Virus record (IMG/VR): IMGVR_UViG_3300046092_000227 | Location: 1-51,371 of that record | DNA length: 51,371 nucleotides | From: a virus | Taxonomy: Duplodnaviria; Caudoviricetes | Direction: 5' to 3' (one strand) | In this document: positions 29,476 to 49,807 of the stretch, piece by piece | How the letters are laid out: every line of letters starts with the position of its first letter | Position numbering within the stretch: position 1 is the first letter of the stretch | The notes under the pieces: model-generated | Told to the model about the DNA's origin: nothing | The model's input: only the letters and a program-made list of their open reading frames with translations | Database searches by the model: none | Position numbers and translations under genes: made by a program

Positions 29476-29967
29476 TCACTTTTTGTATTGTTTGATTTTC
29501 TTTAACGAGCGACAACGTATCACATGAACCGCAGCATTGTCAATTCCAAATTTAGCCGCTGTTTCATTTGTTTTTTTGCCGTGAATAAAATGATCGCTAA
29601 AAATCTCGTAATCGCGTGGCTTGAGAACTTTGGAGGCATACCTGAAGATTTCAATTGGAAAGCGTTTTTTGGGCGCTTTCTCACGATCTGGAAGGGTGTC
29701 CAAGTTATTATCTTCTCCAATTGTAGAGAATGTTTCAGTGTGACGCTTTTTCTTATCCAGTAAATCTTTTGAACGCCAATTAACTAATTGGACTGCATAA
29801 GCTGTAGTGTTCTTTGATAAATCAATTTTATCGGCGGAAAATTTTTTCCACAAAGAAATTGTTGTATCTTGTATAACATCTTCGGAGTCGTCATAGTTTA
29901 AACCGTGATTTTTTGTCACAGATTTAAATAATGGAATAAGCGGTGAAATAAATTCTTCGAATGTCAT
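29476..29967 (-). CDS. ECF-type sigma-70 factor
   Basis: Region 2 GLNYDDSEDVIQDTTISLW...WRSKDLL; region 4 RDYEIF...G....ETAAKFGI...AVHVIRCR. Confidence 0.8.
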   Translation of the reverse strand: MTFEEFISPLIPLFKSVTKNHGLNYDDSEDVIQDTTISLWKKFSADKIDLSKNTTAYAVQLVNWRSKDLLDKKKRHTETFSTIGEDNNLDTLPDREKAPKKRFPIEIFRYASKVLKPRDYEIFSDHFIHGKKTNETAAKFGIDNAAVHVIRCRSLKKIKQYKK

Positions 29968-30059: not shown

Positions 30060-30974
30060 ATGAAAATGAACTCAGGAATATATCGCATCACAAATATTAT
30101 TAATGGCAAATTTTATGTTGGTCAAACCATAGACTTGATCGCAAGAAAGTCAAGTCATTTTGTCTATCTTCGAGGAAATAACCATCACAACCCAAAATTA
30201 CAGGCCGCTTATAATAAGTATGGGGCCGAAGCATTTGTTTTTGAGGCTTTAGAAAGAGTTGATCGTATTAATCTAGCCGAAAGAGAGGCTTTTTGGGTAA
30301 CAAAACTGAACGCAATTGAGCTTGGTTATAATATTAAAGAAGGCGGGAGACTTGGCGGAAAACCTGGGAAAGTATTTGAATGGAAAAATTTATGTACAGG
30401 AGAAGAAATTAACTCAAGCATACCAGATTTAGCCAGAAAAGAAGGTCTTAATGATAAATTATTTTATGATGTTGTTTATGGTAAATGTAGGACCGCTTAT
30501 GGCTGGACTTTAAAATCCAATACAGACATAACGAAAGCTAGAATTCAAAAAAGGGTATTTCTTTCTATTAAGAATCATGTCACTGGAGAAATTTATGAGA
30601 ATTTATCAGTTAAAGAAGCAACTGAATTAACTGGGAGAAGTTCGTCGGCAATTACTTGTTTAGCTCGCGGCCAATACAAAAGGTCTGGAGATTGGGTATT
30701 AATTGATTACGACCCAGCTCAGTTTAACAAGAAAAAGTCATTTAAACACAGCGAACATTTTAAACATGCCGTATCTAGGTGGAGATTGACCATTCTCGAT
30801 TCATTAACAGGAAAAACCTATGCAGATTATAGAACTGGTCAATTAACTGAACTTACTGGAATTCCAACTAAACGCTGGTTAGAACTTGCCTCTGGCCGAA
30901 AAAAGACTTTACGAAATAGATATTCTTTAGTTTCCTCCTTTAGAATTGAGAAAGCTTCTCCTCAAGTTCCATAA
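30060..30974 (+). CDS. GIY-YIG homing endonuclease with repeated C-terminal DNA-binding modules
   Basis: SGIYRITNIINGKFYVGQT, H.N..LQ.AYNKYG and RE..W...GYN, followed by three TGE/TGK-initiated helical repeats. Free-standing and opposite in orientation to its neighbours. Confidence 0.9.
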   Translation: MKMNSGIYRITNIINGKFYVGQTIDLIARKSSHFVYLRGNNHHNPKLQAAYNKYGAEAFVFEALERVDRINLAEREAFWVTKLNAIELGYNIKEGGRLGGKPGKVFEWKNLCTGEEINSSIPDLARKEGLNDKLFYDVVYGKCRTAYGWTLKSNTDITKARIQKRVFLSIKNHVTGEIYENLSVKEATELTGRSSSAITCLARGQYKRSGDWVLIDYDPAQFNKKKSFKHSEHFKHAVSRWRLTILDSLTGKTYADYRTGQLTELTGIPTKRWLELASGRKKTLRNRYSLVSSFRIEKASPQVP

Positions 30975-32108: not shown

Positions 32109-32669
32109 TTATTTTGTACTTTGAAAATGCATTGCGTCTCTCGACCAAAAGGCTCCAGCGGATAACCATCCTTCTTTTGCAAAAGCCTCCATAACTTCAA
32201 ATGGCATTGTAGCTTTCATTGGCCAATTTACAAGATTGCCATTTTTATCAGGATAAAAATCAACTGCCGCACCGCGAGCATGAAGGCTAGGAAGACTTCC
32301 CCCTCTCATAGCTCGGTTATTAAAACAACCAGAATATTGTGCTAAAATTTCTGGATGTGTTTTGGATAATGACTGTAGAATTCTAAGCAATGAGGCTGAA
32401 ATCTTTTGATTGCATCTAATTGTTTTGACTGCTTTTCCTTCGTACTTAAGACCTAGACCGACTACGTTTAAGTTTGTTAATTTGCTCTCGTCTCCAGCTT
32501 CACCAAAAAACTTAGTTAGCGATGTTTGATCCGTTGATGGCCAAGGATTAGGGTTTGGCATCAAAGATCGAAGATATTTTTGACATGCGGCAATTGATTT
32601 TGGCCCCCAGAATCCATCTGGAGTTACGCCAATTTTTGATTGGATTGATTTAATTTGATTTGTTGTCAT
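32109..32669 (-). CDS. M15-family peptidoglycan peptidase endolysin with N-terminal PG-binding motif
   Basis: IQSKIGVTPDGFWGPKS (PG-binding), R.MRGG..PSLHARGAAVD (SxHxxGxAxD) and DAMHFQ. Confidence 0.9.
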   Translation of the reverse strand: MTTNQIKSIQSKIGVTPDGFWGPKSIAACQKYLRSLMPNPNPWPSTDQTSLTKFFGEAGDESKLTNLNVVGLGLKYEGKAVKTIRCNQKISASLLRILQSLSKTHPEILAQYSGCFNNRAMRGGSLPSLHARGAAVDFYPDKNGNLVNWPMKATMPFEVMEAFAKEGWLSAGAFWSRDAMHFQSTK

Positions 32670-32972: not shown

Positions 32973-33209
32973 TTATGATAATTGAATTGCTACTCGACCT
33001 ACGGAATCTCCATCTTGAAGGATGCCGTGGATTTGAACATTGTCTTGGATAATGCAGCCCTTAATATCCAAAAGAAAGGACTTTTGTTCGGCCTCAATAA
33101 AAATTTGGTGCATATCTTCGCCAATATGATGAATAGAACAATCAAAAGTCTTATCTCTTAAATGTTCAGTTGCGTGATTAGTGCCGATAAATGTAATTTT
33201 AGTAATCAT
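32973..33209 (-). CDS. Hypothetical protein
   Basis: 78 aa ORF coupled to the sulfotransferase stop. Confidence 0.6.
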   Translation of the reverse strand: MITKITFIGTNHATEHLRDKTFDCSIHHIGEDMHQIFIEAEQKSFLLDIKGCIIQDNVQIHGILQDGDSVGRVAIQLS

Positions 33210-33868
33210 ATTGTTTGTGAATAATCTAGATGTTCGAAATCATTATGGAATAATTCTAGAACGATTTGACGCTCTGTTTCTCCATAGTATTCTCTCCAAT
33301 CTTTGTGCTGTGTTGAGTTTTCATGGGGTAAAGTATCAGGTAATCCGCAGATGTCAAATTGTTTTATCATTTTTTTCCAATCTGCCTGTAGTTTTTCAAA
33401 TTTTATAATGTATTTTAGCGGCCTAAAATGAGAGAACTCTGTTTGTTTAATTACTGGCCAAAAGTTTTTATCGTCCTTTTTTTTGTATAGAAGTTCACAC
33501 CAGTCACTAAATTTTCCGTCATCTGGAACTCCATATAATTTACCCCATCCTTTTCCGCGAGAAAAACTCCACTGCGAGACTTGCTTATCAAATGGATTTC
33601 TTACGCAGGTAAAAGAAAAAAAATTCTCTAATGCTCTGTAGCCGAAGATTCTTGCTGCTTCCTCTGGAAGGGCGTGAGATGGATCGAATAATCCTTGATA
33701 CTTTTTATTGCCACGAAGTTTTTCGTCAAGAACTTTTTTTTCGCGCCAAAATAAATTTCTCTCTCGTAAAGCGGCGTAAATAGATGAGGATGCACATTTT
33801 GGATTACGATAATATACAATCGTATTAATGAATGGTTTGCCGATTAACTGGCTAAGTGGATTAATCAT
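33206..33868 (-). CDS. Sulfotransferase family 2 (carbohydrate sulfotransferase-like)
   Basis: 5'-PSB motif RNPKCASSS, 3'-PB motif FTCVRNPFDKQVS, IIKFEKL..D, LPHEN and DFEHLDY; start moved to MINPL. Confidence 0.85.
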   Translation of the reverse strand: MINPLSQLIGKPFINTIVYYRNPKCASSSIYAALRERNLFWREKKVLDEKLRGNKKYQGLFDPSHALPEEAARIFGYRALENFFSFTCVRNPFDKQVSQWSFSRGKGWGKLYGVPDDGKFSDWCELLYKKKDDKNFWPVIKQTEFSHFRPLKYIIKFEKLQADWKKMIKQFDICGLPDTLPHENSTQHKDWREYYGETERQIVLELFHNDFEHLDYSQTI

Positions 33869-34068
33869 TATCCCCAAAATTTCTGAACTTGTGGCGTGTA
33901 TCTGCGTATTTATAATAACAAACGCATACATAACAACTTCCAATAACTAATGGAATAGTGCCCCATGTCTTTTCCAAAAGATAAGGTATCATGCTTATTA
34001 AATGCACCCAATGACTGTATAAAGCTAGTTTTTCCCAGCGTTGGAGTTTTTCTTTTAGTTGTTTAAAA

Positions 34069-35784: not shown

Positions 35785-36765
35785 ATGGCTCTATCAGAAA
35801 AATTTATCGCAGGATTATTATCCTTAAACGACCCAGCTAGTCAGCAGGTTGAATTATTCCGTTTGTATTACGATCCTATAAATGAGCCTAGTAGTTATTA
35901 CCCCATGTGTTCGTCTAGTAATGGCTATGGTGGCGCAATCTTCTGGCAAGGAGTTCAATATAATCCTTTGCCTATTGAATTTGAAAATCTTGAAACATCT
36001 ATTTTAGATAGAATGCAGCGGCCAAAATTGCGCATTTCTAATGAGGGGTTGTTAATATCTCAAATTCTTCGAAAGAAGAACGATTTAAAAGATGCTAAAA
36101 TTGCCAGAGTCAGAACTCAAATTAGATTTATTGATGATAATAATTTTGATGGTGGCGAAAATCCTTTTGGCTCGCCAGATCCAACCCAAGAAATCGTTGA
36201 TACTTTTGTTGTCTCCCAAAAACTTGGTGAAAATCGCCAAATAGTTGAGTTCGAATGTACCGCTCCATTTGATGTCACGGATTTTACTGTTCCAGCAAGA
36301 TCAGTATCTCCAAGATATTGCAATTGGCAGTATAGAGGTTGTGGTTGCAATTTTTGGGGTCCGCCAGTAAAAAAAGAAGATGGTTCCGCATTTCCAGTTG
36401 CACCGATTAACAAATTTAATTTTCAAAGTAGCGAATTTGAATGGCAATATGGGAAAGCTTATGCTGCTGGGTCAATAGCTTATGTCCCAACTAATAAAGA
36501 TCCCTTTAGAACTTATTTTGTAGCTAACGAAAATCATACTTCTAATGAAGTAAACCAGCCATCAATTAACTCTTTGATATGGAGTAAAGATGGATGTCAA
36601 AAAACCATTCAAGCTTGCCATCAACACCATGTCGCTACAGGAATCGCTTATACTGGCAATGTAACTATTCCTAATCCATTATCATATGGTTTATTGGAGA
36701 GCGAAAAGTATTTACCATTTGGGGGCTTCCCAGCAACAGATAAATACAGCAAAGGAACGCAATGA
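35785..36765 (+). CDS. Lambda gpL-like minor tail / tail-tip protein
   Basis: WQGVQYNPLPIE, RPKLRISN, VEFE, CNWQYRGCGC, GCQKTIQAC and LPFGGFP. Confidence 0.9.
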   Translation: MALSEKFIAGLLSLNDPASQQVELFRLYYDPINEPSSYYPMCSSSNGYGGAIFWQGVQYNPLPIEFENLETSILDRMQRPKLRISNEGLLISQILRKKNDLKDAKIARVRTQIRFIDDNNFDGGENPFGSPDPTQEIVDTFVVSQKLGENRQIVEFECTAPFDVTDFTVPARSVSPRYCNWQYRGCGCNFWGPPVKKEDGSAFPVAPINKFNFQSSEFEWQYGKAYAAGSIAYVPTNKDPFRTYFVANENHTSNEVNQPSINSLIWSKDGCQKTIQACHQHHVATGIAYTGNVTIPNPLSYGLLESEKYLPFGGFPATDKYSKGTQ

Positions 36766-37151
36766 TCGAAAATTTTAAATCCTGTTTAGATTTTTTTAAA
36801 AACGAAAGTTTAGCTCATACAAATCAAGAAATTGTTGGTTTGTGGGGATTGAAAAATGAAAAACCAGTTACAAAAATTGTTAAAAATCGCTCTCCAGATC
36901 CTCAAAACTATTTTGCTATTGATCCATTAGAAATGTGGCTATTTCAAAATGATTGTGAAATGTTGGCAATATTTCATTCTCATATCTATGGAGATTCTCA
37001 ATTTTCAGAATGGGATAAAATAACTGCGGAAAACTGCTGCTTGCCTTTTCTTGTATATTCTTTATGCGAAGATAAATTTGGTTTTTATGAACCTGCTCAT
37101 TGTGATGTTAGTAGTGTAAATCTTACCAAGGTACGTGAGGTATTAAAATGA
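36762..37151 (+). CDS. JAB/MPN+ domain tail assembly protein (gpK N-domain only)
   Basis: EIVG...N.SPDP...F...IFHSH......SEWD (JAMM motif). Confidence 0.88.
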   Translation: MIENFKSCLDFFKNESLAHTNQEIVGLWGLKNEKPVTKIVKNRSPDPQNYFAIDPLEMWLFQNDCEMLAIFHSHIYGDSQFSEWDKITAENCCLPFLVYSLCEDKFGFYEPAHCDVSSVNLTKVREVLK

Positions 37152-37831
37152 CAACGGTTTATTTACATGGATTACTTGGGAAAGAGTTTGGGCGCAAATT
37201 TAAATTTTCGCTAGGGCGTCCACGCGATTGCGTTTTAGCTATTGATGCTAACAAAAATGGATTTTTAAATAGACTCTTAGATTTGTCAAAAAAAGGAGCA
37301 CATTATTCTGTTGTGATTGATGGAAGATTTTCTAGCAATTTAAGCTTAGAAACCCGCGCAAAAGAATTACATATTGTTCCATATGTTTCTGGCGCGGCTG
37401 GAGCAATTGCTGTTGTGGGCGCAGTTGTTGCTGTGGCTGGTTATGCAGGGGTTGTTACTTCTGCATTTTGGACAGGAGTGCTAATTGCTGTTGGAACCGC
37501 TGCCGTATCATACGGCATTTCTAATTTAATGCAAAAAGAACAAAAGGTAGATGTTGGCTCAGCTTCTGCCGCATCTAACGCATTTAATAAATCTTTCTTA
37601 TTTAGCTCTGGAGAAAACGTGACAGAACAAGGGAATCCAGTGCCTATTGCCTATGGAAGATTAAAAATTGGTTCTTTGGTGATTCAATCTACTATTAAGA
37701 GTTTCCCAGCTAAATTTGATGAAAAATCATCATTACCTATCGCGTCTGAGTTTTCAGAGTTATCTACAAAAAGAGGATTATCTCAAATGGCTATTATTGA
37801 TAGACAAAGCGCAATCCAAACTAATCAATGA
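37148..37831 (+). CDS. Lambda gpI-like tail assembly protein
   Basis: VYLHGLLGKEFG, HIVPYVSGA, a hydrophobic hairpin and QGNPVPIAYGRLKIGS. Confidence 0.9.
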   Translation: MTTVYLHGLLGKEFGRKFKFSLGRPRDCVLAIDANKNGFLNRLLDLSKKGAHYSVVIDGRFSSNLSLETRAKELHIVPYVSGAAGAIAVVGAVVAVAGYAGVVTSAFWTGVLIAVGTAAVSYGISNLMQKEQKVDVGSASAASNAFNKSFLFSSGENVTEQGNPVPIAYGRLKIGSLVIQSTIKSFPAKFDEKSSLPIASEFSELSTKRGLSQMAIIDRQSAIQTNQ

Positions 37832-40800
37832 ACCATTTTTTAAAGAAAAACTTTTCAAGTATTTTTGGCGCTGGAGGTAAACCTGAAAAAGGAGATCCGC
37901 CGCCGCCGCCAGTTTTAAACCCACCAAAACTTGGCGCTTTAACTGCATTAACATCGTATAGCTACTCAGAATCAGTAGATGCTTTAAGTGAGGGGCCGAT
38001 TGAAGGGATCGTCAATCAAAATGGCCAACATCTTGATGGTTATCGTATTTTTGAAGGTGTTTATATTGATGATGTGCCTGTTAAAAAAACAATGAACCCA
38101 ATGGACCCTTCAATTAGCAGGTCAACGGTTTACTTGGGTGACATAATTCAACAATTAACAGCGCAGTGGTTTAGTGGAGATTTATTTCAAGATTTATCTT
38201 TAAATAATTTACCTCTTGTTAAAACATCTTATGACCCATCTTCAAGCGTTAATAATCCATACGAATCATTTAAGGTATCAAATGATAAATTAAGCGCGGA
38301 AATAATTTACGGCAAAAAAAATATATCCAAGGCAATTTTCCTAGGGATTAATACTTTGAGGCGGTTTTCTGATGATTCTTCGATACCTTCTGATTTAGCA
38401 GCTATTGCAAAACAAAAACTTTTAAAGTACGATGCGTTTTCTAGTCTTTCTATAATCGAAAATCAGTTATTAAAAGACTACCCAATCTCTACAGATTTTC
38501 CATTTTTTTGCGTTAAAATTAATCTTGGTAATATTTACAGATCCACTGAACCTGTTCAAAAAATTTTAAATCTTCCAGTAAGTAAAGAAACTAGCTTTTA
38601 TCTTGAAAATGATATTTCAAACCAAATTTTTCAACCATTAGAAATTTCAGAAATTGGGAAAACTAGAATAGTCAGGCCGTTGAAAAATATTGATACAAGT
38701 TTTTTATATAGAAACAGCACTTTTGAGGAAGAAGATAATCTCGAATTAGCAGGTTATCTTTATTTATTTGGCGTACATCAAAATAGTTTTCCAACAAAAG
38801 AAAGTTTAATATCTTTGAGAGAGAATATTAAAAACTTACATATTTTAGATTATAATCAAGCAAAATATAATTATTCAAATATTTTAGCAGAAATTAGGAA
38901 CGGAGAAGAGTTGCAACTGCCATTAGGTTTTTTCGATAAAACATATTTGGATAAGATATATGGAATTAAATTACTTGGCCCATTCTCTAATCAAGGCCAA
39001 ATTTTAAAATTGACTGATTTTAATAAAGCAAATGCAAGCGGAAAAATAAAAGGACTTTTAGAAACCAGCGCTACCACAACAGCTTTCTCTTCTGAAAAAT
39101 TAATTAGCGAAGAGGAGCTAGATTACCTTGAGGAATTATGGGGATTGGAGGGTTTTTTGAAGAAAGATGGGCAATATTACTTTGCTGTTGAGGGCTTATT
39201 TACATATCTTTCTAATTATAAAAGAATAGTATTATCGAAGACTAGTGAGGATAATTTTTCAATAGCAATCAAATACACTACATCTACTACGACTTATTAT
39301 TATGTAAGTATTACTCAACAAAATAAGAACTTTACTTTTACAGCCACTTATTATTGGTATGATAAAGGTAGTCCAGGGGCTGGTGCGCAACCAGGAAGGC
39401 CAGCAAAATGGGTTAGTGCAAAATTACAATTTACTGGAGATGATGGATGGGGAGGGGAGATAATCATTAGGAATAAAGCTCTTTTAGCTGTCACAATTTT
39501 ACTGCTATCCACAGTAGAAGGTTCTCAAGACAGTAGATCAAATAAAAGTTACTCTGGATGGAGTGAATCATCAATGTCTCAATTTGATGAGGAGCCAAAT
39601 TCCGTTATTCATGTTGTTAGGAATCCTAATGTTTCCAATGTTTTCTTGACCATGGGTATACGCGCCTTATCCGACACTGCGGAAACACCGAAAACGCTGG
39701 ACGGCACAAAAGAAAAAGTTGATATTGGAGCAAAAATACCGTCCGCTGTTAAATTTAAAATTGAAATTGGATTGCAAGATTCTAATGGAGTTGATCAAGT
39801 GCCATCAAAATCATTAGTTTATCAGGTTGTCGGCATCGCAGAAAGTCCCGCTCTTATTGATATTGGAAGAACAGAAAATGCTAATAGTATATCAAATTAT
39901 GCGAGATTCATCCAAGGAACTGAGAATATAGCTTACCCACTAACCCTTCCAGAGTCAGTTGATGGATCATTTAGGTATGTAAAAGTTACTAGAACAACAT
40001 ATGAAAGTTACTCATCTTTAGTTCGAAGAGAAATATCGCTCGAAAAGGTTACAGAAATTATTGATAGTAGATTTTCATATCCAAACACGGCGATTGTCGG
40101 CGTTAAATTAGACGCGAGAACACTATCCTCTATGCCGCCAAGATCATATGATGTTAGATTAAAGCGCATAATGATACCCACTAATTATTATCCATTGTAC
40201 GCGGATGGAAAAGATAAAAGATTTTATAAAACAAATGCTGAATTTTCAAATGCCGCGAAAGCTGATAAATTAATTTATAATGGAGATTGGGATGGGACTT
40301 TTAAAGAAGCGTGGTCGGATAATCCAGCATGGATTGTTTTTGACCTTTTGACAAATACTCGATATGGCATGGGAAATTATGTTTCCGCTGACCAAATTAA
40401 TATTTGGGAGCTTTATAAAATTGGCAGATTTTGCGATGCAGTAGATGAGGATGGTTATTTTTATGGAGTTCCTAGCTCTAGCGGAGGATTGGAGCCTAGA
40501 TATTCATGCAATATTGTTATTGCTGATAAAACAAATATTTTTGATGCTATTAAAAATCTTGTTTCTTCATTCAGAGGAAATATTTTTTACTCGAATTCTT
40601 ACATTGATTTTACAGATGACCGAGTGAAATTGCCGAATTATTTTTTCAATAATCAAAATGTTCGGGATGGATTATTTAACTACACTAATTCTAGACGCGA
40701 CCAACAGTATAATACTTTAGAGGTTAGTTACTTTGATAGGGATGACGGCTTTAAAGTTAAAACAGAATATATTGAAGATCCAGAGGATATTAAAAAACGC

Positions 40801-41874
40801 GGTGTTCTAAGAGCGGATATTGATACTTTCGGCGTGACTTCTCGCGCTCATGCTAATCGTATTGGCAAGCATATTATCTATTCAACAGTTAATGAAAATC
40901 AAGCTGTCTCATTTGGTTGTGGGCCTGAAGTTCTTGCTTGTCGGCCTGGGGACTTAATCTCAATCGAAGATGATTTAAAATCTTTGCAAAAGAACATTGG
41001 TCGAGTATTAGAAATTGATACGGCACAAAAAATATTAAGATTAGATGAGCAGTTTAAAAGCGGCGATTACCTTAATGAAGTGAGTCTTTTTATTCCTACG
41101 GGGCAAAAAACTTACAGCGATTATTATGACATGGCCGTTAGTCCGTCTAAGCTCGCAATGAATGAGCTTTATTCAAATGACGTTCCTCAAATCGCCACTT
41201 TTAAAACAACAGGTTATCACAATCTTGATTACGGTTGCTACTTATATTTAAATCCAACGGGCGAAAATATCGCCTTACTAGACAAGGCTAAGGCTGGAGG
41301 TATCTATTCAATTACCTTATCTGGACTCAAGCAAGAAATTTATAAACTTACTAGTATAAAAGAAAACTCTCCTATTGAATATGAGGTTGCCGCTATCAAA
41401 TTTGATACTGGTAAATTTGGAAGTATTGAAAGCGGCCAATCTTTAGTGGATTTTTATAATAACTATCCAAACGTATCGGCTCCAACCCAAGGGCTGGAAA
41501 CAATCTCCCAGAATAATCTGTATCAACTTAGTTACCCAGTTATCCAATCTTTTTCTACTGGAAACTATGATCAGCAAGCTGATGCAATTGATTTATCGGG
41601 TTCTTGGACAGCAGTAAATGGAGCGACTCACTATGATTACGAATTAGTAACACCAAAATACAGTTTTCTAACTGGTCGAACAACTGGATTATTTGCCGTG
41701 TTCACAGATCAAACACAGGCTGGAAGGTTCACTTTAAAAGTCTCCGCTCGTAACATCTCTAGTGTCCCAAATCCTATTAGTGCGACATATTCGTCTGGAA
41801 TCACTGTGCTTAGTTACTCAGCGCCAATTAGAACAAATAGCGTGTTTGCTGGAATTAGCATCAAAAACTCATAA
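37828..41874 (+). CDS. Lambda gpJ-like central tail fibre / host specificity protein
   Basis: DALSEGPIEG, YPNTAIVG, WDGTFKEAWSDNPAWIVFDLLTNTRYG, EPRYSCN, GVTSRAHA.R.G and RPGDLI; FnIII-like C-terminus. Confidence 0.92.
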   Translation: MNHFLKKNFSSIFGAGGKPEKGDPPPPPVLNPPKLGALTALTSYSYSESVDALSEGPIEGIVNQNGQHLDGYRIFEGVYIDDVPVKKTMNPMDPSISRSTVYLGDIIQQLTAQWFSGDLFQDLSLNNLPLVKTSYDPSSSVNNPYESFKVSNDKLSAEIIYGKKNISKAIFLGINTLRRFSDDSSIPSDLAAIAKQKLLKYDAFSSLSIIENQLLKDYPISTDFPFFCVKINLGNIYRSTEPVQKILNLPVSKETSFYLENDISNQIFQPLEISEIGKTRIVRPLKNIDTSFLYRNSTFEEEDNLELAGYLYLFGVHQNSFPTKESLISLRENIKNLHILDYNQAKYNYSNILAEIRNGEELQLPLGFFDKTYLDKIYGIKLLGPFSNQGQILKLTDFNKANASGKIKGLLETSATTTAFSSEKLISEEELDYLEELWGLEGFLKKDGQYYFAVEGLFTYLSNYKRIVLSKTSEDNFSIAIKYTTSTTTYYYVSITQQNKNFTFTATYYWYDKGSPGAGAQPGRPAKWVSAKLQFTGDDGWGGEIIIRNKALLAVTILLLSTVEGSQDSRSNKSYSGWSESSMSQFDEEPNSVIHVVRNPNVSNVFLTMGIRALSDTAETPKTLDGTKEKVDIGAKIPSAVKFKIEIGLQDSNGVDQVPSKSLVYQVVGIAESPALIDIGRTENANSISNYARFIQGTENIAYPLTLPESVDGSFRYVKVTRTTYESYSSLVRREISLEKVTEIIDSRFSYPNTAIVGVKLDARTLSSMPPRSYDVRLKRIMIPTNYYPLYADGKDKRFYKTNAEFSNAAKADKLIYNGDWDGTFKEAWSDNPAWIVFDLLTNTRYGMGNYVSADQINIWELYKIGRFCDAVDEDGYFYGVPSSSGGLEPRYSCNIVIADKTNIFDAIKNLVSSFRGNIFYSNSYIDFTDDRVKLPNYFFNNQNVRDGLFNYTNSRRDQQYNTLEVSYFDRDDGFKVKTEYIEDPEDIKKRGVLRADIDTFGVTSRAHANRIGKHIIYSTVNENQAVSFGCGPEVLACRPGDLISIEDDLKSLQKNIGRVLEIDTAQKILRLDEQFKSGDYLNEVSLFIPTGQKTYSDYYDMAVSPSKLAMNELYSNDVPQIATFKTTGYHNLDYGCYLYLNPTGENIALLDKAKAGGIYSITLSGLKQEIYKLTSIKENSPIEYEVAAIKFDTGKFGSIESGQSLVDFYNNYPNVSAPTQGLETISQNNLYQLSYPVIQSFSTGNYDQQADAIDLSGSWTAVNGATHYDYELVTPKYSFLTGRTTGLFAVFTDQTQAGRFTLKVSARNISSVPNPISATYSSGITVLSYSAPIRTNSVFAGISIKNS

Positions 41875-42200
41875 TGACCACTATCGCACCAACGACGACA
41901 ATCGCGCCGACAACGACGACAATCGCGCCGACAACGACGACAATCGCGCCAACGACGACAACGACGACAACGACGACGATCCCACCAACAACAACGATCC
42001 CGCCAACGTTAGCACCAACGACAACGACGACAACAACGGTTGCGCCAACGACAACGACAACGACGACGACGACAACAACGGTTGCGCCAACGACAACGAC
42101 AACTACCACGACAGTCCCAACAACGACTACGACAGTCGCGCCGACGACGACAACGACAACGACAACTACTACGACTACCCCAGCGCCGACAACCACGCCT
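41874..42200 (+). repeat. Low-complexity (ACG/ACA)n tract with 18-21 bp tandem units
   Basis: acaatcgcgccgacaacgacg repeated in tandem, with longer acgacaacg runs. Confidence 0.9.
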
Positions 42201-43124
42201 TCTCCTTATATTTTTGTTCCAGCCCCATCATTGCCATCTCAAAGCTCTTTTGAGCCATCGGATTTCGCAGATGGTACTGGAATAGGTTTCTCTGTGGCTC
42301 TAAGGAGGGATGTGCCTTTTGATTTTCAATTTGAGGATCGTTTTGGGAACGCTATTACTAATGATTTTGATCTTGTAAACTCTTTTGTAGATGCGTCGAT
42401 TAGTTTCGATGTTTTAACCACAGGAGATTCTTTTGCTCCAAGTGGCGAAAACTTTAGAAATGGAGTGGTGTCCACTAATTATTTATATACTTACGAGCAA
42501 AACTCTGGAGCTTTCAATGGAGATCCACAAAGATACTATAAGTTAAATTTCAAACTCCAAGAAGACGCGAAAATTAATTATAATCTTTTTACAATTTACC
42601 ATTTACCCGCCGAAATTACTGATGTTCGCGTATCTGGATATAATGAAGGGCAAACTGGTGGCGTTACGCTGTCTATTGATACGCCTAGCAATGGTACAAA
42701 TTTTTTAACCCGCCAATTCGATGTTTATACTGGGTCATCGGCAGAATTTTATCCTTTTACAGGTAATCTTTTAAAGAGTTTCCCTGTTTTTAAAACTAGT
42801 CAATCATACGATCTTCAAATAGTAAGTAACGAACAAGATAAGGGTGTCTTTTGCTATTATAAAGTTTTACCGCATGATGATTTTGCTACTGGCTTTTTTT
42901 GGACTGGTGTCGCTTCTGGCGTTATGGATTACCCAAGAGAGGCGAGGACATTTTTAGAAGCTATTCCAGTAAGAGGATCTTTTGAAGATAGGACTGGAAT
43001 TTATACTGGTTTAGCTGCTCCAGAAATTACTCCTTATGATGGTATTTCATTCTACCAAACAGGCGTCGATCAAAATTTTTTCATAATCAAATCAGGACAG
43101 TGGAAAACTGTTAATTTGAGTTAA
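41874..43124 (+). CDS. Tail-associated protein with N-terminal mucin-like Thr/Pro repeat
   Basis: About 108 aa of (I/V)APTTTT repeats, then a beta-rich (S/T)G-rich domain; TAATG-coupled to gpJ. Confidence 0.8.
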   Translation: MTTIAPTTTIAPTTTTIAPTTTTIAPTTTTTTTTTIPPTTTIPPTLAPTTTTTTTVAPTTTTTTTTTTTVAPTTTTTTTTVPTTTTTVAPTTTTTTTTTTTTPAPTTTPSPYIFVPAPSLPSQSSFEPSDFADGTGIGFSVALRRDVPFDFQFEDRFGNAITNDFDLVNSFVDASISFDVLTTGDSFAPSGENFRNGVVSTNYLYTYEQNSGAFNGDPQRYYKLNFKLQEDAKINYNLFTIYHLPAEITDVRVSGYNEGQTGGVTLSIDTPSNGTNFLTRQFDVYTGSSAEFYPFTGNLLKSFPVFKTSQSYDLQIVSNEQDKGVFCYYKVLPHDDFATGFFWTGVASGVMDYPREARTFLEAIPVRGSFEDRTGIYTGLAAPEITPYDGISFYQTGVDQNFFIIKSGQWKTVNLS

Positions 43125-43131
43125 TATAAGT

Positions 43132-44040
43132 ATGATCATACTAGATAATCTTTGGCCAGCATTTCTTGACAGTCAGGATTATCGGCAATTAAACCAATAC
43201 GGCTTATTTTTTAAAGATGAGACTGGACCTTTTTTAGATAATCCAGATAATTATCTTGTTTCTTGGGGTGAAAATATTAATAAAATTCGTCATTCAGTAT
43301 TGGAAACTGGATTTTTCTTTAATGCGATGCACTTAGATCAACATGGATTATATGAAAAATCTTCTTTTAATTTTCCAGAAGCAAAAAAAATAATTGAAAA
43401 ATTTTCGGCTCCGAAATCATGGAAAAACCTCTTATCTGAGGGTAAATTAAATCCAAAATATCCTCAACCATCCTCCTATCTTGATTGGGATGGAGTTGTT
43501 GTTATTTGCCAACATCATATAGACAGAAGTATTTGGAGAGTTGGATCGTCTGGAGATTATCATAAATTTTTAGAAAGCGCCGCGAAACACTATGGAAAAC
43601 GAGCGCTCTTTAAAAAACATCCTGTTACGCTTGGAAATAAGGATGAAATGGATAGAATAGAGAAGATAGCCTTAAAATATGGATGCGAAGTCGCTTATAC
43701 TGATACTTCTGTAATTGATAATGCCGAATCTGTTTTAGTTTATAACTCAACCTTTGTAATTGACGCTTTAATGAGGGGTAAGCATGTCAATCAATTTTCG
43801 CCTGGATATTTTTGGCAATCTGGAGTTGTCCAATATACCAAGGGAAAGTTTCCATCTAATCAAGAAAAAATTAATCTTGATTACGTTGATAAATTTATTG
43901 ATTTCCTAATATGGAAATACTGCTTTCATAAGATGCTACCCTTAGAAAAAATTGCTGAAATTATCAAAACTTTTGAAGCTAGTAGAGAATTTTTTCCTTT
44001 ACCAGTTGAATTATCTTATGGAAGCTTTATCGACACCTAA
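43132..44040 (+). CDS. KpsS/KpsC-like (capsule synthesis, GT-B) glycosyltransferase
   Basis: VLETGFF, VICQ...D, FKKHP and YNSTFVIDALMRGK motifs typical of CMP-sugar (Kdo) transferases. Confidence 0.65.
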   Translation: MIILDNLWPAFLDSQDYRQLNQYGLFFKDETGPFLDNPDNYLVSWGENINKIRHSVLETGFFFNAMHLDQHGLYEKSSFNFPEAKKIIEKFSAPKSWKNLLSEGKLNPKYPQPSSYLDWDGVVVICQHHIDRSIWRVGSSGDYHKFLESAAKHYGKRALFKKHPVTLGNKDEMDRIEKIALKYGCEVAYTDTSVIDNAESVLVYNSTFVIDALMRGKHVNQFSPGYFWQSGVVQYTKGKFPSNQEKINLDYVDKFIDFLIWKYCFHKMLPLEKIAEIIKTFEASREFFPLPVELSYGSFIDT

Positions 44041-44050
44041 TCCAATATAA

Positions 44051-44887
44051 ATGACTACAAAAATTTCTTCACGCCGAAAACTTACAATAGGAATGGCAAC
44101 GTTCGATGATTACGACGGTGTATATTTTACCATTCAATCAATAAGAATGTATCATAAAGACATACTAGATGATATTGAATTCATAATTGTAGATAACAAT
44201 CCAGAATCAGAACATGGAAAATGTCTTCGTGAATTTTGTAAATGGGTAAAAGAACCAATAAAATATATTCCCTATGTAGAAATGAAGGGGACATCATCTC
44301 GCGAACAGGTTTTTATTAATGCCACAACAGACTATGTTTTATGTATGGATTGCCACGTACTTCTTGAATCAGGCAGTATATCTGAATTAATTAAATTCTT
44401 TGATTCTGGGAATGACAATGGAAACATAGTCCAAGGACCGCTGTTGTACGACAACCTTGCTGACATCTCTACTCATTTCAAAGAAGACTGGGGTTGTCAG
44501 ATGTTTGGTAAATGGGCATTGGATGAAAGAGCCGCTCTATCGGAGGCATTTGAAATACCAATGCAGGGTCTTGGAGTATTTGCTTGTAGAAAATCATCAT
44601 GGATAGGTTTCTGCAAGGATTTTAAAGGATTTGGATGTGAAGAATTTTTTGTAGCGGAACAACACCGCCAAGCTGGTAGAAAAGTTGTATGTTTGCCATC
44701 TTTAAAATGGGTTCATAGATTTGCTAGACCTGCAAAAATTCCATACCCTATATCTGCCAAAGATAAGTATCAAAATTATCTTATCGGATTCAAAAAACTA
44801 AATCTAGATACTTCTCCAATAACAAATCATTTTTTAGATTATGTTGGACGTATTCAACTAACTGAGTGGGAGAAGGAACTCCTTTAA
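44051..44887 (+). CDS. GT-A glycosyltransferase (GT2/GT27-like)
   Basis: IIVDN, VLCMDCH (DxH), PMQGLGVFA, GFGCEE and LPSLKWVHRFARPAKIPY. Confidence 0.8.
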   Translation: MTTKISSRRKLTIGMATFDDYDGVYFTIQSIRMYHKDILDDIEFIIVDNNPESEHGKCLREFCKWVKEPIKYIPYVEMKGTSSREQVFINATTDYVLCMDCHVLLESGSISELIKFFDSGNDNGNIVQGPLLYDNLADISTHFKEDWGCQMFGKWALDERAALSEAFEIPMQGLGVFACRKSSWIGFCKDFKGFGCEEFFVAEQHRQAGRKVVCLPSLKWVHRFARPAKIPYPISAKDKYQNYLIGFKKLNLDTSPITNHFLDYVGRIQLTEWEKELL

Positions 44888-45051
44888 AAACCATATGTTC
44901 TTCGTTAATTATTTTGAGTTTTGAAGTTGGCCTTTTGGTCATTAGGCGTTCTATTGTAAAGCTTTTTAAGTCGCCGAAAAACTTTTTTACTAATAGGTGA
45001 GGATGGATCAATAATATTCCTCAGGGCTTTGGTTGCTGATTTATTCATAAT

Positions 45052-45507
45052 TTAAAGTGTTCCAATATACATTTCCGAATCTTTTTTCATGTTTGTCAAA
45101 GCATAATGCTTTTTTACCTTATCGGAATTTGGATGATTCTCAACAGAGAACATCACATATCTTTTGTATCCTATACTTTTCCCAAATCTAAGGGCTGTTT
45201 CTTTTAACTTAATACCAGCAAATGGATTTTTTGAAACCCAAAGATATTCTTGCCAAATCTTTTCTCCGATTACATAATTTTCTGTTCCCTGAAACATAAT
45301 GACAGAATCAAATTCTCCATTTTCTTCATTCGCCCAAACGTGCAGGTTGAAATTCAATAATCTACTATCAGCCCATGCCTTAATTAAAGATTCTGGATTT
45401 ATTTTTGCCCCAATGTGACCATATAGGCCATTTTCATGGCCAAACTTCATAGCTATTTGATTAGCCATGCGTTTGAAAGTTTCAGGGTTAGTGATTTTTT
45501 GAATCAA
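45052..45507 (-). CDS. GNAT-like acyltransferase-fold protein
   Basis: QEYLWVS...GIKL...A..FGKSIG....M...KVKKHY pattern. Confidence 0.55.
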   Translation of the reverse strand: MIQKITNPETFKRMANQIAMKFGHENGLYGHIGAKINPESLIKAWADSRLLNFNLHVWANEENGEFDSVIMFQGTENYVIGEKIWQEYLWVSKNPFAGIKLKETALRFGKSIGYKRYVMFSVENHPNSDKVKKHYALTNMKKDSEMYIGTL

Positions 45508-45511
45508 GCTT

Positions 45512-46255
45512 TTATTTATTTTTTAAATAACCCATGATGATGCGGCACTCTTTAGGTTGGAATAAAGATACCCGAACAACTCCATCTTCATCTTTGACAT
45601 CATCTAAGTCAATAGAAATTTTTTCCGCAGATTTCATTTCTTCAAGAATAGCCAAGAGGGATTCTTGAGTTTTCAAGCCTTTGGCGATAAGCATATTTTT
45701 AAGCTTATTATTAATATCTGGAAGAGTCGGTTGCGACTTTTCTTTTTCTGGGATCAATTTTGTTTCGCCTTTACTCATTTCCTCATCAGAAACAATATTG
45801 ATATTCAAAAACTTACGAATGCACAGGCTCAACGCTCGGTTTTGAGCTTGTGTTTCTTGGAAATTAGCCATGAAATCACCGCAGTTTCCAACGTTTGAAT
45901 TTGCCACCCAAGAAAATGTTACTGGCTTATTATCTGTTTCGAGATTCGGAAGCCAAGTGATTGTGCATTTTGCTGTGACGTAACCATTATCGACATTCAA
46001 TACTTGTTGGTCGAGTAGCGTGTATCCACGAATACGCATCAGTTCAATTAGCCCACCAATTTTCACAAGGCACTGATTATCGGCAAGACCCTCCGCAGTG
46101 CTTGGAACTGCTTGGCCACGGCGCTCAAAATATTCTTTATTTGGATAAAGATATTCGGGCGAAATCATATCGCGCCAGATAATAAAACCGTGCTTATCTG
46201 TTTTGTATTCAAGACTGTTGATGAAGCCTTCTGAGTTGCGTGTAGTGGTATTCAT
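45512..46255 (-). CDS. Rad52/Sak-like single-strand annealing protein
   Basis: VKIGGL...RIRG, VTAKCTITW and ETQAQNRALSLCIRKFLNI...EEM. Confidence 0.55.
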   Translation of the reverse strand: MNTTTRNSEGFINSLEYKTDKHGFIIWRDMISPEYLYPNKEYFERRGQAVPSTAEGLADNQCLVKIGGLIELMRIRGYTLLDQQVLNVDNGYVTAKCTITWLPNLETDNKPVTFSWVANSNVGNCGDFMANFQETQAQNRALSLCIRKFLNINIVSDEEMSKGETKLIPEKEKSQPTLPDINNKLKNMLIAKGLKTQESLLAILEEMKSAEKISIDLDDVKDEDGVVRVSLFQPKECRIIMGYLKNK

Positions 46256-47409
46256 TTGTAGATAAAAAAGTGCTCAATATCTTGAGCGAACTCTTCACTA
46301 TCGACTACAAAATCCTTACCGTCAAATTGTTTTTGAATTTTCCAGTGTGCAATTGACGCATAACGCTGGGCTTTCGAGAAAACTGATTTTTTAGTCCAAA
46401 ATTTGCAGTCTTTAGAAAGACGCTCAAGCTTATTACGATTAGGTTTGGGCATTCTTTCAACAATGTAATCAAAAAACTTTTCTCGCACATCCGAAATCGT
46501 TTCATCTTTCATTCCCACTAATACAAGATTGGGAATCAAATTTTTTGCAGCTTTAATGTATTCCAATGAAAAGTCATCTCTTTCGTCAATCAACAGGGTT
46601 AGTTGTGGAATATTTTTTTTGTTCAACTCTAGCAACTGAAGATTGATTGGTTTTTTACTAATAATCTTCACTGGGTATTTTTGCGCCCAAACGTGAGCAC
46701 AGTTTTCATCAAAATTAAGATCCATTCTTAAATTGATATTCGCCCCATTCAATTCTGCGCTTTCACCAAAAAAGTCGGGAATGATTTCTACAATGGGCAA
46801 ATTATAATGCTCTCCAATAAGTTGAGTGGAAAAATTAAAATTTATGGGCAAATCTAGTAATTTAAAAACAGATTGGCCAATGTCTTCCACTTTGATAGTG
46901 TTGACCATTTTAGGGTATTCAACTGGACCAAAAGGTGGATGTTTGCCGCCTCGATCTGGCTGCAAGTAAATAACATCTTCAGAATTTGACCAATTGCAAG
47001 GGGATTGCTCTTTGTAAATATGGGAGTATAAAGCTACAACCTTTTTACTGAATGCGGAAGCGTTATGAATTGCCAAAGAGTCGATACCGATATGAAGAAT
47101 CGCTCCTTTTTGAATATATGCAGATTGGGCATAAGTTAAAGTCAAATACTTAGCATCCACTCCATCAATAACTTGATCTTGCGGCCCACCAATTTGAATC
47201 ATTGCAATGCCAAAGTGATTCAGCACTGGCTTCAGCAAAGCGACAGCTTCTGCCCAATAGTCAAAATGTTTTGCTGGAATTTTCCCATCGCCCACATGCA
47301 ATGTTATATACTTATCAAATGGTACGGGAAAAATTTGAGTATTAATATTGGGTTTGTCTAGTGGTAAGACGCCCATGTGGGATGCGTATGTGTCTAAGAG
47401 GGAAGCCAT
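46252..47409 (-). CDS. GT9-like (heptosyltransferase-fold) glycosyltransferase
   Basis: K.FDYW, IQIGG and LHIGIDSLAIHNASAF.K.VVALY. Confidence 0.75.
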   Translation of the reverse strand: MASLLDTYASHMGVLPLDKPNINTQIFPVPFDKYITLHVGDGKIPAKHFDYWAEAVALLKPVLNHFGIAMIQIGGPQDQVIDGVDAKYLTLTYAQSAYIQKGAILHIGIDSLAIHNASAFSKKVVALYSHIYKEQSPCNWSNSEDVIYLQPDRGGKHPPFGPVEYPKMVNTIKVEDIGQSVFKLLDLPINFNFSTQLIGEHYNLPIVEIIPDFFGESAELNGANINLRMDLNFDENCAHVWAQKYPVKIISKKPINLQLLELNKKNIPQLTLLIDERDDFSLEYIKAAKNLIPNLVLVGMKDETISDVREKFFDYIVERMPKPNRNKLERLSKDCKFWTKKSVFSKAQRYASIAHWKIQKQFDGKDFVVDSEEFAQDIEHFFIYK

Positions 47410-49322
47410 TCTGCGCGGAATTTATGTTGTCTGTTCTGATATGTCATGAATCTCTGACTAGCGCCATGGGGAAGCATTACTACATCAAAAAATCCTTTGT
47501 GTTCGTTTCGTCCTGTCATGGCAAAAATATCATCCATTACAGGTAGCCAATCTAAGACTTTATGAATTTGTGGCAAATGTTCTATAAGCTCTTTAAATTG
47601 TGGTTTTGTCGCAAAATAAATTCTAAATTCGGGGTAAAGTTTTGCTACCCTAGGAATTAGAGAGTTTACCATGATTACATCGCCAGCACTTTCTGGCATT
47701 ACAATCAATAATCTCTTATCATCTGTTGCGTCAAGCAGTTCGCTAAAATCAATATTTTTATGATTCAATTGAGCGTTGTGCTGCTGGGCCACATTAACAA
47801 AGTGGTTATACACTCCTTGGTGATCATTGGATCGAGTAAGATGATCAACCCAGTGTTTCACTTGGCTGTTATTCTTGTCAACTTTTTCATGAAGAATATT
47901 AGCAAAAATATCTAATACAAAATCTTGTGGGGAAAGATTTGGCGGAGGGACATAAGATGGGTTCTGTGGTTGAGGAAGGTTCTCTGGAGAATCCCAATCT
48001 TTACTTGGAAGATTATCCAATACCTCTTCCCATTTTTTACCAATAACATCAATAGAGTAATTGTTCAAAACAAACTCGCGTCCTTGGCAACCAATTTTTC
48101 GACGCTCTTCTTCTGGCAATGAAATTAGCCATTCTACTTTTTCAACGATAGAAGATATTTTTGTGCGGCTTTTGATAAAATCAGAACCAAGTTCTACATC
48201 TGGTACCCAATCAAGAGCAAAGCCGCCGCTATTTTCTTTAACCGCATCGGTTCCACAGCTATAATTAGTAACGAGCAATGGCAATTCGCATAGCTTACTT
48301 TCAAGACAGAAAAATTCTAATCCACCGCTAGTTAATGGCAGACACGCGATGTCCATGAGGCTATATACTTCATTTAATTGAGCGTCATCTACTGCATGAA
48401 TGATATCAACCGTATTGCATGTTCCAGTTGAACCGCAAGATTTGCAATTCAAATCATGCCCACAAAATGGCTTAACTTCATAAGTTCTACATGCGCGACA
48501 GTAATAAGTCGTGAGAATATCGGCCAAATCTACATTGTTTTCTTCAGCAAATCTTTTTAAATTAAAACCTTCCTTCCATGAAGTATGAAGCAGTAGTTTA
48601 ATTTTTTTATCTGGATTACGAGCTTTTAATTCTTTTAGCGCCAAAATCAAATGCGGGAATCCCTTGCGAAGCTGATTTCGAGAAACTAAACCAACAATAG
48701 TTGTATCTTTTTCGATTCCGAATTTATTTCGTAAAGCAATCTTTTTCTCGTCTTCTAGTTTATAAAATGGAGTAGGGTCAATGCATCCATGCAAAGTTTT
48801 TACATTTGAATATCCCAACTCTTTAAATGCTTCCTCCGCAAAAGTTGCCCAAACAAAATAATTATCATATTTGCTAGCAGCATCAATAGATGATGGTAGC
48901 AAGCTAAGGGAGTCTAATGTTGTCCAAAGAATAGGGTTCGTTTTGTTGAACCATGTTTTTTTATCATATCCATCAAAAGCCCAAACATCTTCTGCGCAAA
49001 TTACTACGGCGGGTTTGTGCTGCTCAACTATTTTATCAATACCAAAATAACCATAATTTGCTGCGCGCATTTTCAAATCGCGCTCTCCATGGTTTTGGAT
49101 GGATTGTAGTTGAGCGTGTACATCTGGAGAAGCGGCAGTTCCATGGCAGATCCAAGGTTGTTTTTGCGTTTCTGGGCTATCAAAAGCTAGTCCATTTGCA
49201 GCTTCAACAATATTATATTTCCCCGTTTTATGGAGGTAGCGAAGTAGCGTTCTAGTTACTCGGCCAAAACCAGTCAATAAACGAGAAAAATTACTTTGAT
49301 AAACAATTGTTTTTTTGTCCAT
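47394..49322 (-). CDS. GT4-type glycosyltransferase with Zn-ribbon insert and C-terminal GT9-like domain
   Basis: TGFGRV, SRNQLRK, CRAC...CKSC, LNEVY..MD...SGGLE...ESKLC and C-terminal ESAGDVIMVNSL...YFATKP. Confidence 0.8.
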   Translation of the reverse strand: MDKKTIVYQSNFSRLLTGFGRVTRTLLRYLHKTGKYNIVEAANGLAFDSPETQKQPWICHGTAASPDVHAQLQSIQNHGERDLKMRAANYGYFGIDKIVEQHKPAVVICAEDVWAFDGYDKKTWFNKTNPILWTTLDSLSLLPSSIDAASKYDNYFVWATFAEEAFKELGYSNVKTLHGCIDPTPFYKLEDEKKIALRNKFGIEKDTTIVGLVSRNQLRKGFPHLILALKELKARNPDKKIKLLLHTSWKEGFNLKRFAEENNVDLADILTTYYCRACRTYEVKPFCGHDLNCKSCGSTGTCNTVDIIHAVDDAQLNEVYSLMDIACLPLTSGGLEFFCLESKLCELPLLVTNYSCGTDAVKENSGGFALDWVPDVELGSDFIKSRTKISSIVEKVEWLISLPEEERRKIGCQGREFVLNNYSIDVIGKKWEEVLDNLPSKDWDSPENLPQPQNPSYVPPPNLSPQDFVLDIFANILHEKVDKNNSQVKHWVDHLTRSNDHQGVYNHFVNVAQQHNAQLNHKNIDFSELLDATDDKRLLIVMPESAGDVIMVNSLIPRVAKLYPEFRIYFATKPQFKELIEHLPQIHKVLDWLPVMDDIFAMTGRNEHKGFFDVVMLPHGASQRFMTYQNRQHKFRAEWLPS

Positions 49323-49807
49323 TATTCGCTTTTTTGCTGTTGACCAGTAGCGTAAAAAATTTCAGCAAGGGCTGTTTCAAGAAAAACTCGAATAGCTTCC
49401 GCCTCTGCCAATTCAACACCAAGACCAATTTTCAATCCATTTCGAGTGACTGTGAGAGAAAATGCATCTTTACCATCCTTTTTTTTGTATGGAGAAAAAG
49501 AAATCTGAGTCTTATCGCTATCGAAAGTGTGAAAAGCTGAAAACTCTTTATATGCCCTAATTGCATAAATCAAACCACCAATTTCAATTTCATTGAACTT
49601 TACGCAAGCAGATTGACCTTCATCTTTATTATTGTAAAATGAACCAAGACGCTTTTCTTCGTTCCAATCTTTTTGTTTGACAGCATTTAAAAATAGCGCT
49701 GGGCCTTTATTCGTTCGGCCAAGTTGAAAAGAAATAGCAGCACCAGTAAATTGACCGTCTTTTTGAAATTTCTGAGGTTTGAAGATGGGTAGGTTCATAT
49801 TGTCCAT
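49322..49807 (-). CDS. Whirly/PC4-like ssDNA-binding protein (putative)
   Basis: Duplicated beta-strands-plus-helix pattern: VKFNEIEIGGLI...FSAFH and IGLGVELAEAEAIRVFL. Confidence 0.5.
   Translation of the reverse strand: MDNMNLPIFKPQKFQKDGQFTGAAISFQLGRTNKGPALFLNAVKQKDWNEEKRLGSFYNNKDEGQSACVKFNEIEIGGLIYAIRAYKEFSAFHTFDSDKTQISFSPYKKKDGKDAFSLTVTRNGLKIGLGVELAEAEAIRVFLETALAEIFYATGQQQKSE

Follow-up and report, generated by a model that had tools for sequence, protein, structure and literature searches.

Within the window (IMG/VR virus record IMGVR_UViG_3300046092_000227, analysed over its whole length of 51,371 bp), a lambda-type gpL-gpK-gpI-gpJ run (35785-41874) is followed by three genes that encode a protein with a long threonine (Thr) tract, a KpsC/KpsS-like transferase and a glycosyltransferase (GT) of the GT-A fold, referred to below as GT-A. 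Sequence comparison and structure models together make it probable that this three-gene cassette O-glycosylates an accessory protein of the phage tail tip. The gpJ-like gene and the cassette are arranged as follows:

37828-41874, plus strand: gpJ-like central tail fibre or tail-tip protein, 1348 amino acids (aa), last gene of the lambda-type run (PHROG 31, E 6.6e-118; PF13550)
41874-43124, plus strand: candidate acceptor, 416 aa, with a Thr/proline (Pro) tract at aa 1-111 (nucleotides 41874-42206), followed by a conserved beta domain that is FN3-like in part
43132-44040, plus strand: KpsC/KpsS-like transferase (PF05159, E 7.7e-5), candidate chain-extending enzyme
44051-44887, plus strand: soluble GT-A, 278 aa in a single domain without a lectin domain, with DxH and motifs like those of polypeptide N-acetylgalactosaminyltransferases (ppGalNAc-Ts); candidate initiating polypeptide O-glycosyltransferase

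An earlier reading of this DNA, made from the sequence only, had placed all open reading frames (ORFs) correctly. It had also assigned the cassette to one operon with gpJ, and the spacing agrees with this, as the gpJ stop codon overlaps the start of the acceptor gene (TAATG at 41872-41876) and the two genes behind it follow after gaps of 7 bp and 10 bp. The promoter matches do not add to the operon claim, since they stand at chance level (58 vs. 58.7 expected), and the promoter and terminator scan of the locus likewise stayed at chance level. The Thr-rich start of the gpJ-coupled gene and its lack of a signal peptide were both confirmed; the tract spans 111 aa (72 T, 17 P, 9 A, 6 I and 4 V), the best 15-aa hydropathy over the first 60 aa is 0.72, and no hydrophobic N-terminus was found in any of the six proteins tested. 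No other window ORF of at least 60 aa contains 40 consecutive aa with a Thr content of 30% or higher. The Thr reading frame is the real one, because it continues into a domain conserved in 17 homologous proteins and because homologues carry Thr, serine (Ser) or Pro tracts at the same place. Contigs from two other freshwater runs (X1 and X2) match the tract in pieces, together with both GT genes, at 0 differences, and the source sample may be one or the other of these runs. Within the tract, ACG or ACA accounts for 62 of 72 Thr codons, compared with 78 of 165 in six neighbouring genes, a bias that is expected of repeat expansion. The database copy of the protein holds 297 of the 416 aa and the tract is gone, and the pairing of such enzymes with Thr-rich proteins has perhaps been missed so far because gene callers cut these tracts off.

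The motifs of GT-A are present as originally read, i.e., D100-C-H102, PMQGLGVFA, GFGCEE (GFGGEE in the family consensus) and CLP...WVHRFARP...PY. Homologues numbered 1,252 among 1,468 candidates, and the family has at least 1,262 representatives (50% identity, E 1e-30). Across 96 aligned rows, D100, H102, G173, F194-G195-x-E197-E198, H222, R223, F224 and R226 are invariant, while among 81 diverse family members DxH occurs in all 81 and a GFGxEE-type motif in 79. An AlphaFold model built from 96 rows has a predicted local distance difference test (pLDDT) score of 93. When this model was searched with Foldseek, all matches listed down to rank 48 were ppGalNAc-Ts (E 3e-13, template modelling (TM) score 0.71-0.74). 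An independent aligner (VIA) gave mouse GalNAc-T1 (Z 22.6; 256 aligned residues, 3.2 A) and Toxoplasma GalNAc-T3 (Z 21.5), with RmlT as the best other GT (Z 19.5), which bears out the label of a ppGalNAc-T-like enzyme. The GT27 ppGalNAc-Ts (mouse GalNAc-T1, 8v9q; human GalNAc-T2, 6nqt and 2ffu; Toxoplasma GalNAc-T3, 8uhv) thus provide the best match, as the nearest fold among solved structures only. For the C-terminal half, the sole sequence match in the PDB was GalNAc-T7, a weak one (E 0.72) with three motifs in register (P..GGLF, WGGEN and P.SRVGH). The DxD motif and the xED catalytic aspartate of ordinary GT2 enzymes are not present, and DxH and GEE are found instead. As described in PMC7185993, where the DxD and xED motifs are defined, DxH in place of DxD is a trait of GT27 and GT60, and a C-terminal histidine is a metal ligand in GT27. 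A likeness of the predicted GT-A to ppGalNAc-Ts in fold and motif register is hence supported.

Several comparisons speak against going further and calling the enzyme a ppGalNAc-T. Predicted models of uncharacterised bacterial GT2+GT7C proteins fit GT-A better (TM 0.82-0.83) than ppGalNAc-Ts do, identity to ppGalNAc-Ts is 14-17%, and the position of the GT27 motif WGGEN, aligned in register at E 0.72, reads FGGEE in the family and FGCEE in the window. Searches with family profiles gave best E values of 0.42 and 0.72 for GT27 members, so that significant sequence similarity was not found. Pfam assigns GT-A to GT2 (PF00535, E 8.6e-10, residues 13-130; 96 of 96 members), and the best PDB sequence matches of the family profiles are N-terminal halves of GT2 enzymes (TarP, E 3.7e-7); the single sequence had 0 matches in the PDB. 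The lectin domain and N-terminal membrane anchor of GT27 are absent from this single-domain protein, which has no hydrophobic segment. The enzyme also differs from GT27 in being small (278 aa), apparently cytoplasmic and encoded beside its likely acceptor, although the likely acceptors are Thr/Pro-rich in both cases.

Mucin-type glycosylation is initiated by GT27 and GT60 in animals and protists (PMC8724618). The GT60 polypeptide alpha-GlcNAc-transferases (PF11397) share with GT-A the DxH and GEE motifs, the lack of a lectin domain and, if the present reading is right, mucin-type Ser/Thr glycosylation (PMC8724618, PMC7185993); three bacterial GT60 members show D[SA]H, GEE and WH. Membership in GT60 was nevertheless rejected, since PF11397 was not among 25 of 26 families shown for the 96 members, the profile probability was 1.8% with just three GT60 rows, and hmmsearch gave about 1 bit. 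GT-A would be best filed as a separate family near GT27 and GT60, as strict GT27 membership is unsupported, and it would work in a ppGalNAc-T-like manner. Its sequence and model, together with the co-occurrence described below, make it likely that GT-A is an initiating polypeptide O-glycosyltransferase.

The genomic company of the GT-A family points to the acceptor. Viral loci comprised 4 found with a single-protein query plus the best 80 of 513 found with a profile (84 of 517), and these formed 48 clusters at 90% identity that are not fully independent; a Thr-rich ORF was defined by 40% Thr in 40 aa. Such an ORF was found in 39 of the 48 clusters, in 37 of them no more than 2 kb from GT-A. 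The gene directly upstream of GT-A was Thr-rich in 31 of 47 viral clusters, compared with 19 of 847 other ORFs (Fisher p 1e-32), and clustering at 80% identity gave 16 of 28 vs. 17 of 514. The 94 Thr-rich partner ORFs fall into 58 groups after masking, with many too short to cluster, and they belong to many unrelated families, one with Ig-like tail and head-decoration matches and most without any match.

Among bacteria, the best 80 of 378 matches gave 74 clusters, of which 32 have a Thr-rich ORF; it lies directly upstream of GT-A in 16 of 73, compared with 18 of 896 other ORFs. In phages and bacteria alike, the GT-A family thus shows a strong association with Thr-rich proteins. The bacterial GT-A domain is fused to HprK-like, PqqD, GalE, GT25, GT9, sulfotransferase or LicD domains, and a leader-like W.xPVV..PxHA motif, often placed before a Thr run, was found in 30 of 80 bacterial loci and in 0 of 84 and 0 of 37 viral loci. 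A PqqD-type recognition element indicates a peptide substrate. Bacterial peptide-modification clusters (L085-L164; e.g., L121:6215-10522, L135:5290-9205 and L102:7962-10486) hold an HprK-like::GT-A fusion, PqqD, NTP_transf_5 and precursors with a leader and a Thr-rich core, and they include one PqqD fused to a Thr tract and one GT-A fused to GalE. These loci resemble the Bacillota clusters for linear polyphosphorylated peptides, which have a recognition element (RRE), an HprK-like kinase and an NTP transferase (PMC13381572), in that the bacterial GT-A relatives adjoin PqqD, HprK-like and NTP_transf_5 genes. They differ in that the main text of PMC13381572, in which the word 'threonine' occurs 0 times, describes those clusters without GT-A or Thr-rich cores, and the phage version has neither leader nor RRE. 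At another locus (L200:1524-3671), a canonical member, a KpsC-like gene and a poly-Thr ORF lie 5 kb away from a pair of remote GT-A relatives, which match the family profile at E about 1e-8.

The tract itself varies within the lineage of the window phage. Acceptor homologues came from three sets of loci (9 metagenome, 10 viral and 37 anchored on GT9), and 18 acceptors with an intact N-terminus were tabulated after near copies (such as L183, L185 and L222-L224) and cut ones had been excluded. Five are poly-Thr (the window, L168, L176, L214 and L220), and three of these have GT-A, which lies directly downstream of the acceptor in L168 and 8.4 kb away in L176. The other 13 lack a TT dipeptide (two poly-Ser, two tractless and nine Pro-rich), and GT-A was found in 0 of these 13 loci, nor did it match in the whole records of nine of them (9-67% complete). 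Of the 477 ORFs in a relative that is 91% complete, a single one is a GT-A and a single one is Thr-rich, the latter coupled to gpJ. GT-A stands beside a cut acceptor in L169 and L175, and in L225 it is present and the acceptor is cut off. When a quick tree was built from 40 rows, the six lineage GT-As were spread over three places, and a single clade, for a group named post hoc, was rejected (approximately unbiased test, p-AU 0.0165); these two results suggest that GT-A genes have been exchanged repeatedly.

The association is not without exceptions, and these count against the pairing of tract and enzyme. No Thr-rich ORF was found in the locus in 9 of 48 viral clusters (six of the nine short or cut) and in 42 of 74 bacterial clusters, and L251 and L252 have GT-A without a Thr-rich ORF within 8 kb. 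Within the lineage, L214 and L220 are poly-Thr without GT-A, although these records are 8% and 14% complete and end before the site where L176 and L225 hold GT-A. All 13 records without a TT dipeptide are fragments, several being near copies. In addition, GT-A is missing from a complete 172-kb relative whose tail module is a different one and in which an ORF of Thr/Ala/Pro repeats (T 0.42) is present.

These findings also bear on the explanation that GT-A and the KpsC-like protein are ordinary transferases for polysaccharide, the host surface or DNA, and that the tract is a flexible linker that is left unmodified or is modified by the host. The Pfam assignments to GT2 and Capsule_synth and the GT2 sequence matches suit it, the usual interpretation of phage GTs is that they modify DNA or the host surface (PMC12619734, PMC12801897), and relatives without GT-A have Pro-rich tracts. 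It leaves unexplained, however, why GT-A is found directly after Thr-rich proteins that are unrelated to each other, why bacterial relatives have a peptide-leader context and why the enzyme is lost when the tract changes, and GT-A has no membrane anchor. On balance this explanation is distinctly unlikely. Under the reading preferred here, i.e., glycosylation of the tract by the cassette, the tract and its enzymes would form a swappable module, with poly-Thr served by one of three GT-A subfamilies, poly-Ser by a GT8-like cassette, or with Pro-rich repeats or no tract at all.

Directly upstream of the two poly-Ser acceptors there are, instead of GT-A, three genes: one GT8-like, one for a methyltransferase and one more. 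This cassette, which accompanies a poly-Ser tract on the gpJ-coupled protein (L177:7551-10924, from one record with L165, and L167:1-3044), is a candidate second initiating system. A GT8-like gene also follows a Ser/Thr/Pro-rich protein in L253:3114-6735, and L251 and L252 carry one beside GT-A, so that a Ser-specific role of the GT8-like enzyme is unsupported. The GT-B-like gene of the Ser-tract cassette showed no detectable likeness to KpsC (probability 2.6%). In L182:11640-13398 (also in L183-L185), a GT8 gene (E 1.4e-12) and a gene of the sulfotransferase family come after acceptor homologues that are Pro-rich. In L169:509-1887 and L175:2050-3461 the lineage GT-A adjoins a GT29 gene (sialyltransferase-like, E 5.6e-12 in L169) that faces the acceptor gene.

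The KpsS/KpsC-like label of the middle gene (43132-44040) has also held. In addition to the PF05159 match, which recurs in 23 of the 31 rows of its family (37 homologues), its profile matches KpsC at E 0.004, a weak alignment of about 110 residues in the C-terminal part. KpsC and KpsS transfer Kdo (3-deoxy-D-manno-octulosonate) from CMP-Kdo. Fifteen viral loci with the KpsC-like gene, fetched independently of GT-A, formed 8 clusters, and 6 of these contain a Thr-rich ORF as well as GT-A, the latter no more than 1-3 genes away; of the remaining two, one has just a Ser/Thr ORF 6 kb off and one has neither. It is thus supported that the KpsC-like gene belongs to the same cassette as GT-A and the Thr tract. 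The phage gene differs from the beta-Kdo transferases KpsC and KpsS (GT107, PF05159) in its short alignment, in its travelling with a peptide GT and Thr tracts, and in its surroundings, where no capsule locus or capsule export genes were found. Neither the 164 loci retrieved by means of GT-A nor the 91%-complete relative contain the gene, a result that tells against an obligatory extension step and makes the gene an optional add-on. Where present, the KpsC-like enzyme likely extends the chains, as its sequence suggests.

In every relative that has it, the acceptor gene lies directly or nearly directly 3' of gpJ, and the gpJ-like protein is likely to be its docking site. Residues 136-244 of the conserved domain are FN3-like (Z 8-8.8), with tail-tip chains of lambda, T1 and T5 among many equal matches; such scores of 8-9 are near background, and the poor model (pLDDT 45) further weakens the case. 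Tail-tip Ig leads for the domain (Atlas) score below 0.9, and a 1,003-aa homologue matches BppL_N (E 1.7e-4). It was also considered that the domain is a fused tail of longer gpJ proteins; this was rejected, since 38 ORFs of at least 900 aa gave matches in stand-alone acceptors only.

The tract could instead be glycosylated by GT-A on a protein that is not part of the virion, with an intracellular role or as a decoy freed at lysis. This would fit the lack of any PHROG or Pfam structural match for 41874-43124, the many Thr-rich partners in other genomes that are 100-200-aa proteins without a family, and the resemblance of the bacterial partners to exported peptides. The constant coupling to gpJ argues against it, as do the FN3-like part, the tail-tip Ig leads and the BppL_N match, and this alternative is considered unlikely. 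From gene position, sequence and model, the protein encoded at 41874-43124 is probably a tail-tip accessory protein of the virion.

Gene order and coupling, the tract, the fold and motifs of GT-A, and the joint travel of the three genes are observed, and a course of events can be proposed from them. GT-A would put the first sugar on the tract threonines in the host cytoplasm, by metal-dependent transfer from a UDP-sugar, as suggested by DxH and the C-terminal His222, which are as in GT27. The donor sugar may be an N-acetylhexosamine (HexNAc). The KpsC-like enzyme would then lengthen the chains, perhaps with an acidic sugar such as Kdo, given its likeness to KpsC, although the donor here is a guess. 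The glycosylated protein would be assembled on the tail tip, where the product could be a stiff, hydrated glycan brush. The functions put forward for such a brush in the sequence-only reading, as a spacer, a shield or bait, are conjectural, and so is GalNAc as the donor.

Phage virion glycosylation is already known, and it is the GT-A family that is apparently undescribed so far. The mycobacteriophages Che8 (gp110), Corndog (gp38) and Myrna encode GTs that O-glycosylate their own capsid or tail-tube proteins in the cytoplasm (Freeman et al. 2023, via PMC12619734, PMC11256854, PMC13445384 and PMC12363180). The present system would share with them the use of phage-encoded GTs for the phage's own structural proteins, in this case recognised by genes in the tail-tip run with a putative structural role of the acceptor, and it differs in that their targets, as described in these sources, are capsid and tail-tube subunits and not a long Thr tract. 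No match to the GT-A family was found by tblastn with two queries in 50,697 phage records, and hence no cultured-phage member; the window phage itself is uncultured. The family is undescribed in the accessible text of PMC13738210 and PMC12801897, and no literature on it or on mucin-like glycosylation of phage tails was found in a search whose coverage excludes subscription papers.

A wider reading is offered tentatively: large aquatic phages might run their own cytoplasmic mucin-type glycosylation by means of an undescribed GT27/GT60-related family that is shared with bacterial peptide-modification clusters, and might swap tract and cassette to vary a brush on the tail tip, here extended with Kdo and mimicking a bacterial capsule on the virion. 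If true, mucin-type O-glycosylation would extend beyond eukaryotic secretory pathways to phages and bacteria, with a bearing on the origin of GT27 and GT60, and tail tips would have a switchable glycan layer. Many phage GTs that are currently taken to modify DNA or the host surface could then be given a function, and a soluble, lectin-less enzyme of 278 aa with an adjacent natural acceptor would be a possible tool for making O-glycoproteins.

Facing the cassette is a block of genes on the opposite strand, for which the following was found:

45052-45507, minus strand: 151-aa lineage core gene without a family match, kept in relatives of any tract type
45512-46255, minus strand: 247-aa lineage core gene without a family match above the cut-off, present in all six larger relatives scanned, whatever their tract type
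46252-47409, minus strand: GT9-like protein, lineage core (TIGR02201, E 4e-4, weak; PF01075 in 4 of 10 homologues)
47394-49322, minus strand: GT4 + GT9-like fusion, lineage core (GT4, E 1.3e-10; weak heptosyltransferase match at 537-591)
49322-49807, minus strand: conserved unannotated gene without a family match

The GT4+GT9 label given in the sequence-only reading fits these matches and the GT9-like label does so weakly, whereas the GNAT-like label of the 151-aa gene found no family match; the 247-aa gene had been missed. That reading had made these genes extenders and cappers, with a single glycan on the Thr tract, capping included, as the joint product of all four GTs and the 151-aa gene. 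In its favour, the genes are neighbours in the window, a core GT might work on any tract that happens to be there, and the 91%-complete relative has GDP-mannose dehydratase-like and sugar-phosphate nucleotidyltransferase-like enzymes. However, the block is on the opposite strand and is retained with Ser, Pro or no tract, with other tail modules and without GT-A. Of 37 loci, grouped into 22 clusters, 36 have the GT4+GT9 and GT9-like genes as neighbours. GT-A is present in only 2 of the 22 clusters, and among records searched whole it occurs in 1 of 18 and in 1 of 10. Conversely, the 164 GT-A loci contain the GT9-like gene and the 151-aa gene 0 times and the GT4+GT9 gene twice, and the complete 172-kb relative without GT-A also has the GT4+GT9 gene. 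For these reasons the opposite-strand genes were placed outside the cassette, and joint action on one glycan is improbable enough to be given little credence. Thus, of the full glycosylation system first proposed, the Thr-tract protein, the KpsC-like gene and GT-A stand and the three opposite-strand genes do not; the block is a conserved lineage core module, probably with some target other than the Thr tract. The 91%-complete relative encodes, at L206:9081-15427 (G003), GDP-mannose dehydratase-like and sugar-phosphate nucleotidyltransferase-like proteins and a kinase-aldolase fusion, which may supply donors for the core GTs.

Half or more of the window's words were found in 3 of 13 listed public runs, all three being freshwater metagenomes, and no RNA run among those listed held the window. 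The 91%-complete relative is 148 kb long and has 76% identity in the GT9-like gene. Among its 47 large ORFs scanned there is a tape measure gene and no sheath match, so the window phage is likely to be a large siphovirus-type phage. A sulfotransferase-like gene (33206-33943, minus strand; PHROG 3347, E 1.4e-13) lies 5' of the tail-tip run, with homologues in 8 lineage loci without GT-A, 4 bacterial GT-A loci and 1 KpsC-like locus. Elsewhere in the window are two endolysin-like genes (4421-5011 and 32109-32669), a thymidylate synthase (27723-28397), a GIY-YIG homing endonuclease (30060-30974) and a sigma-factor-like gene (29476-29967), a set that is ordinary for a large lytic phage.

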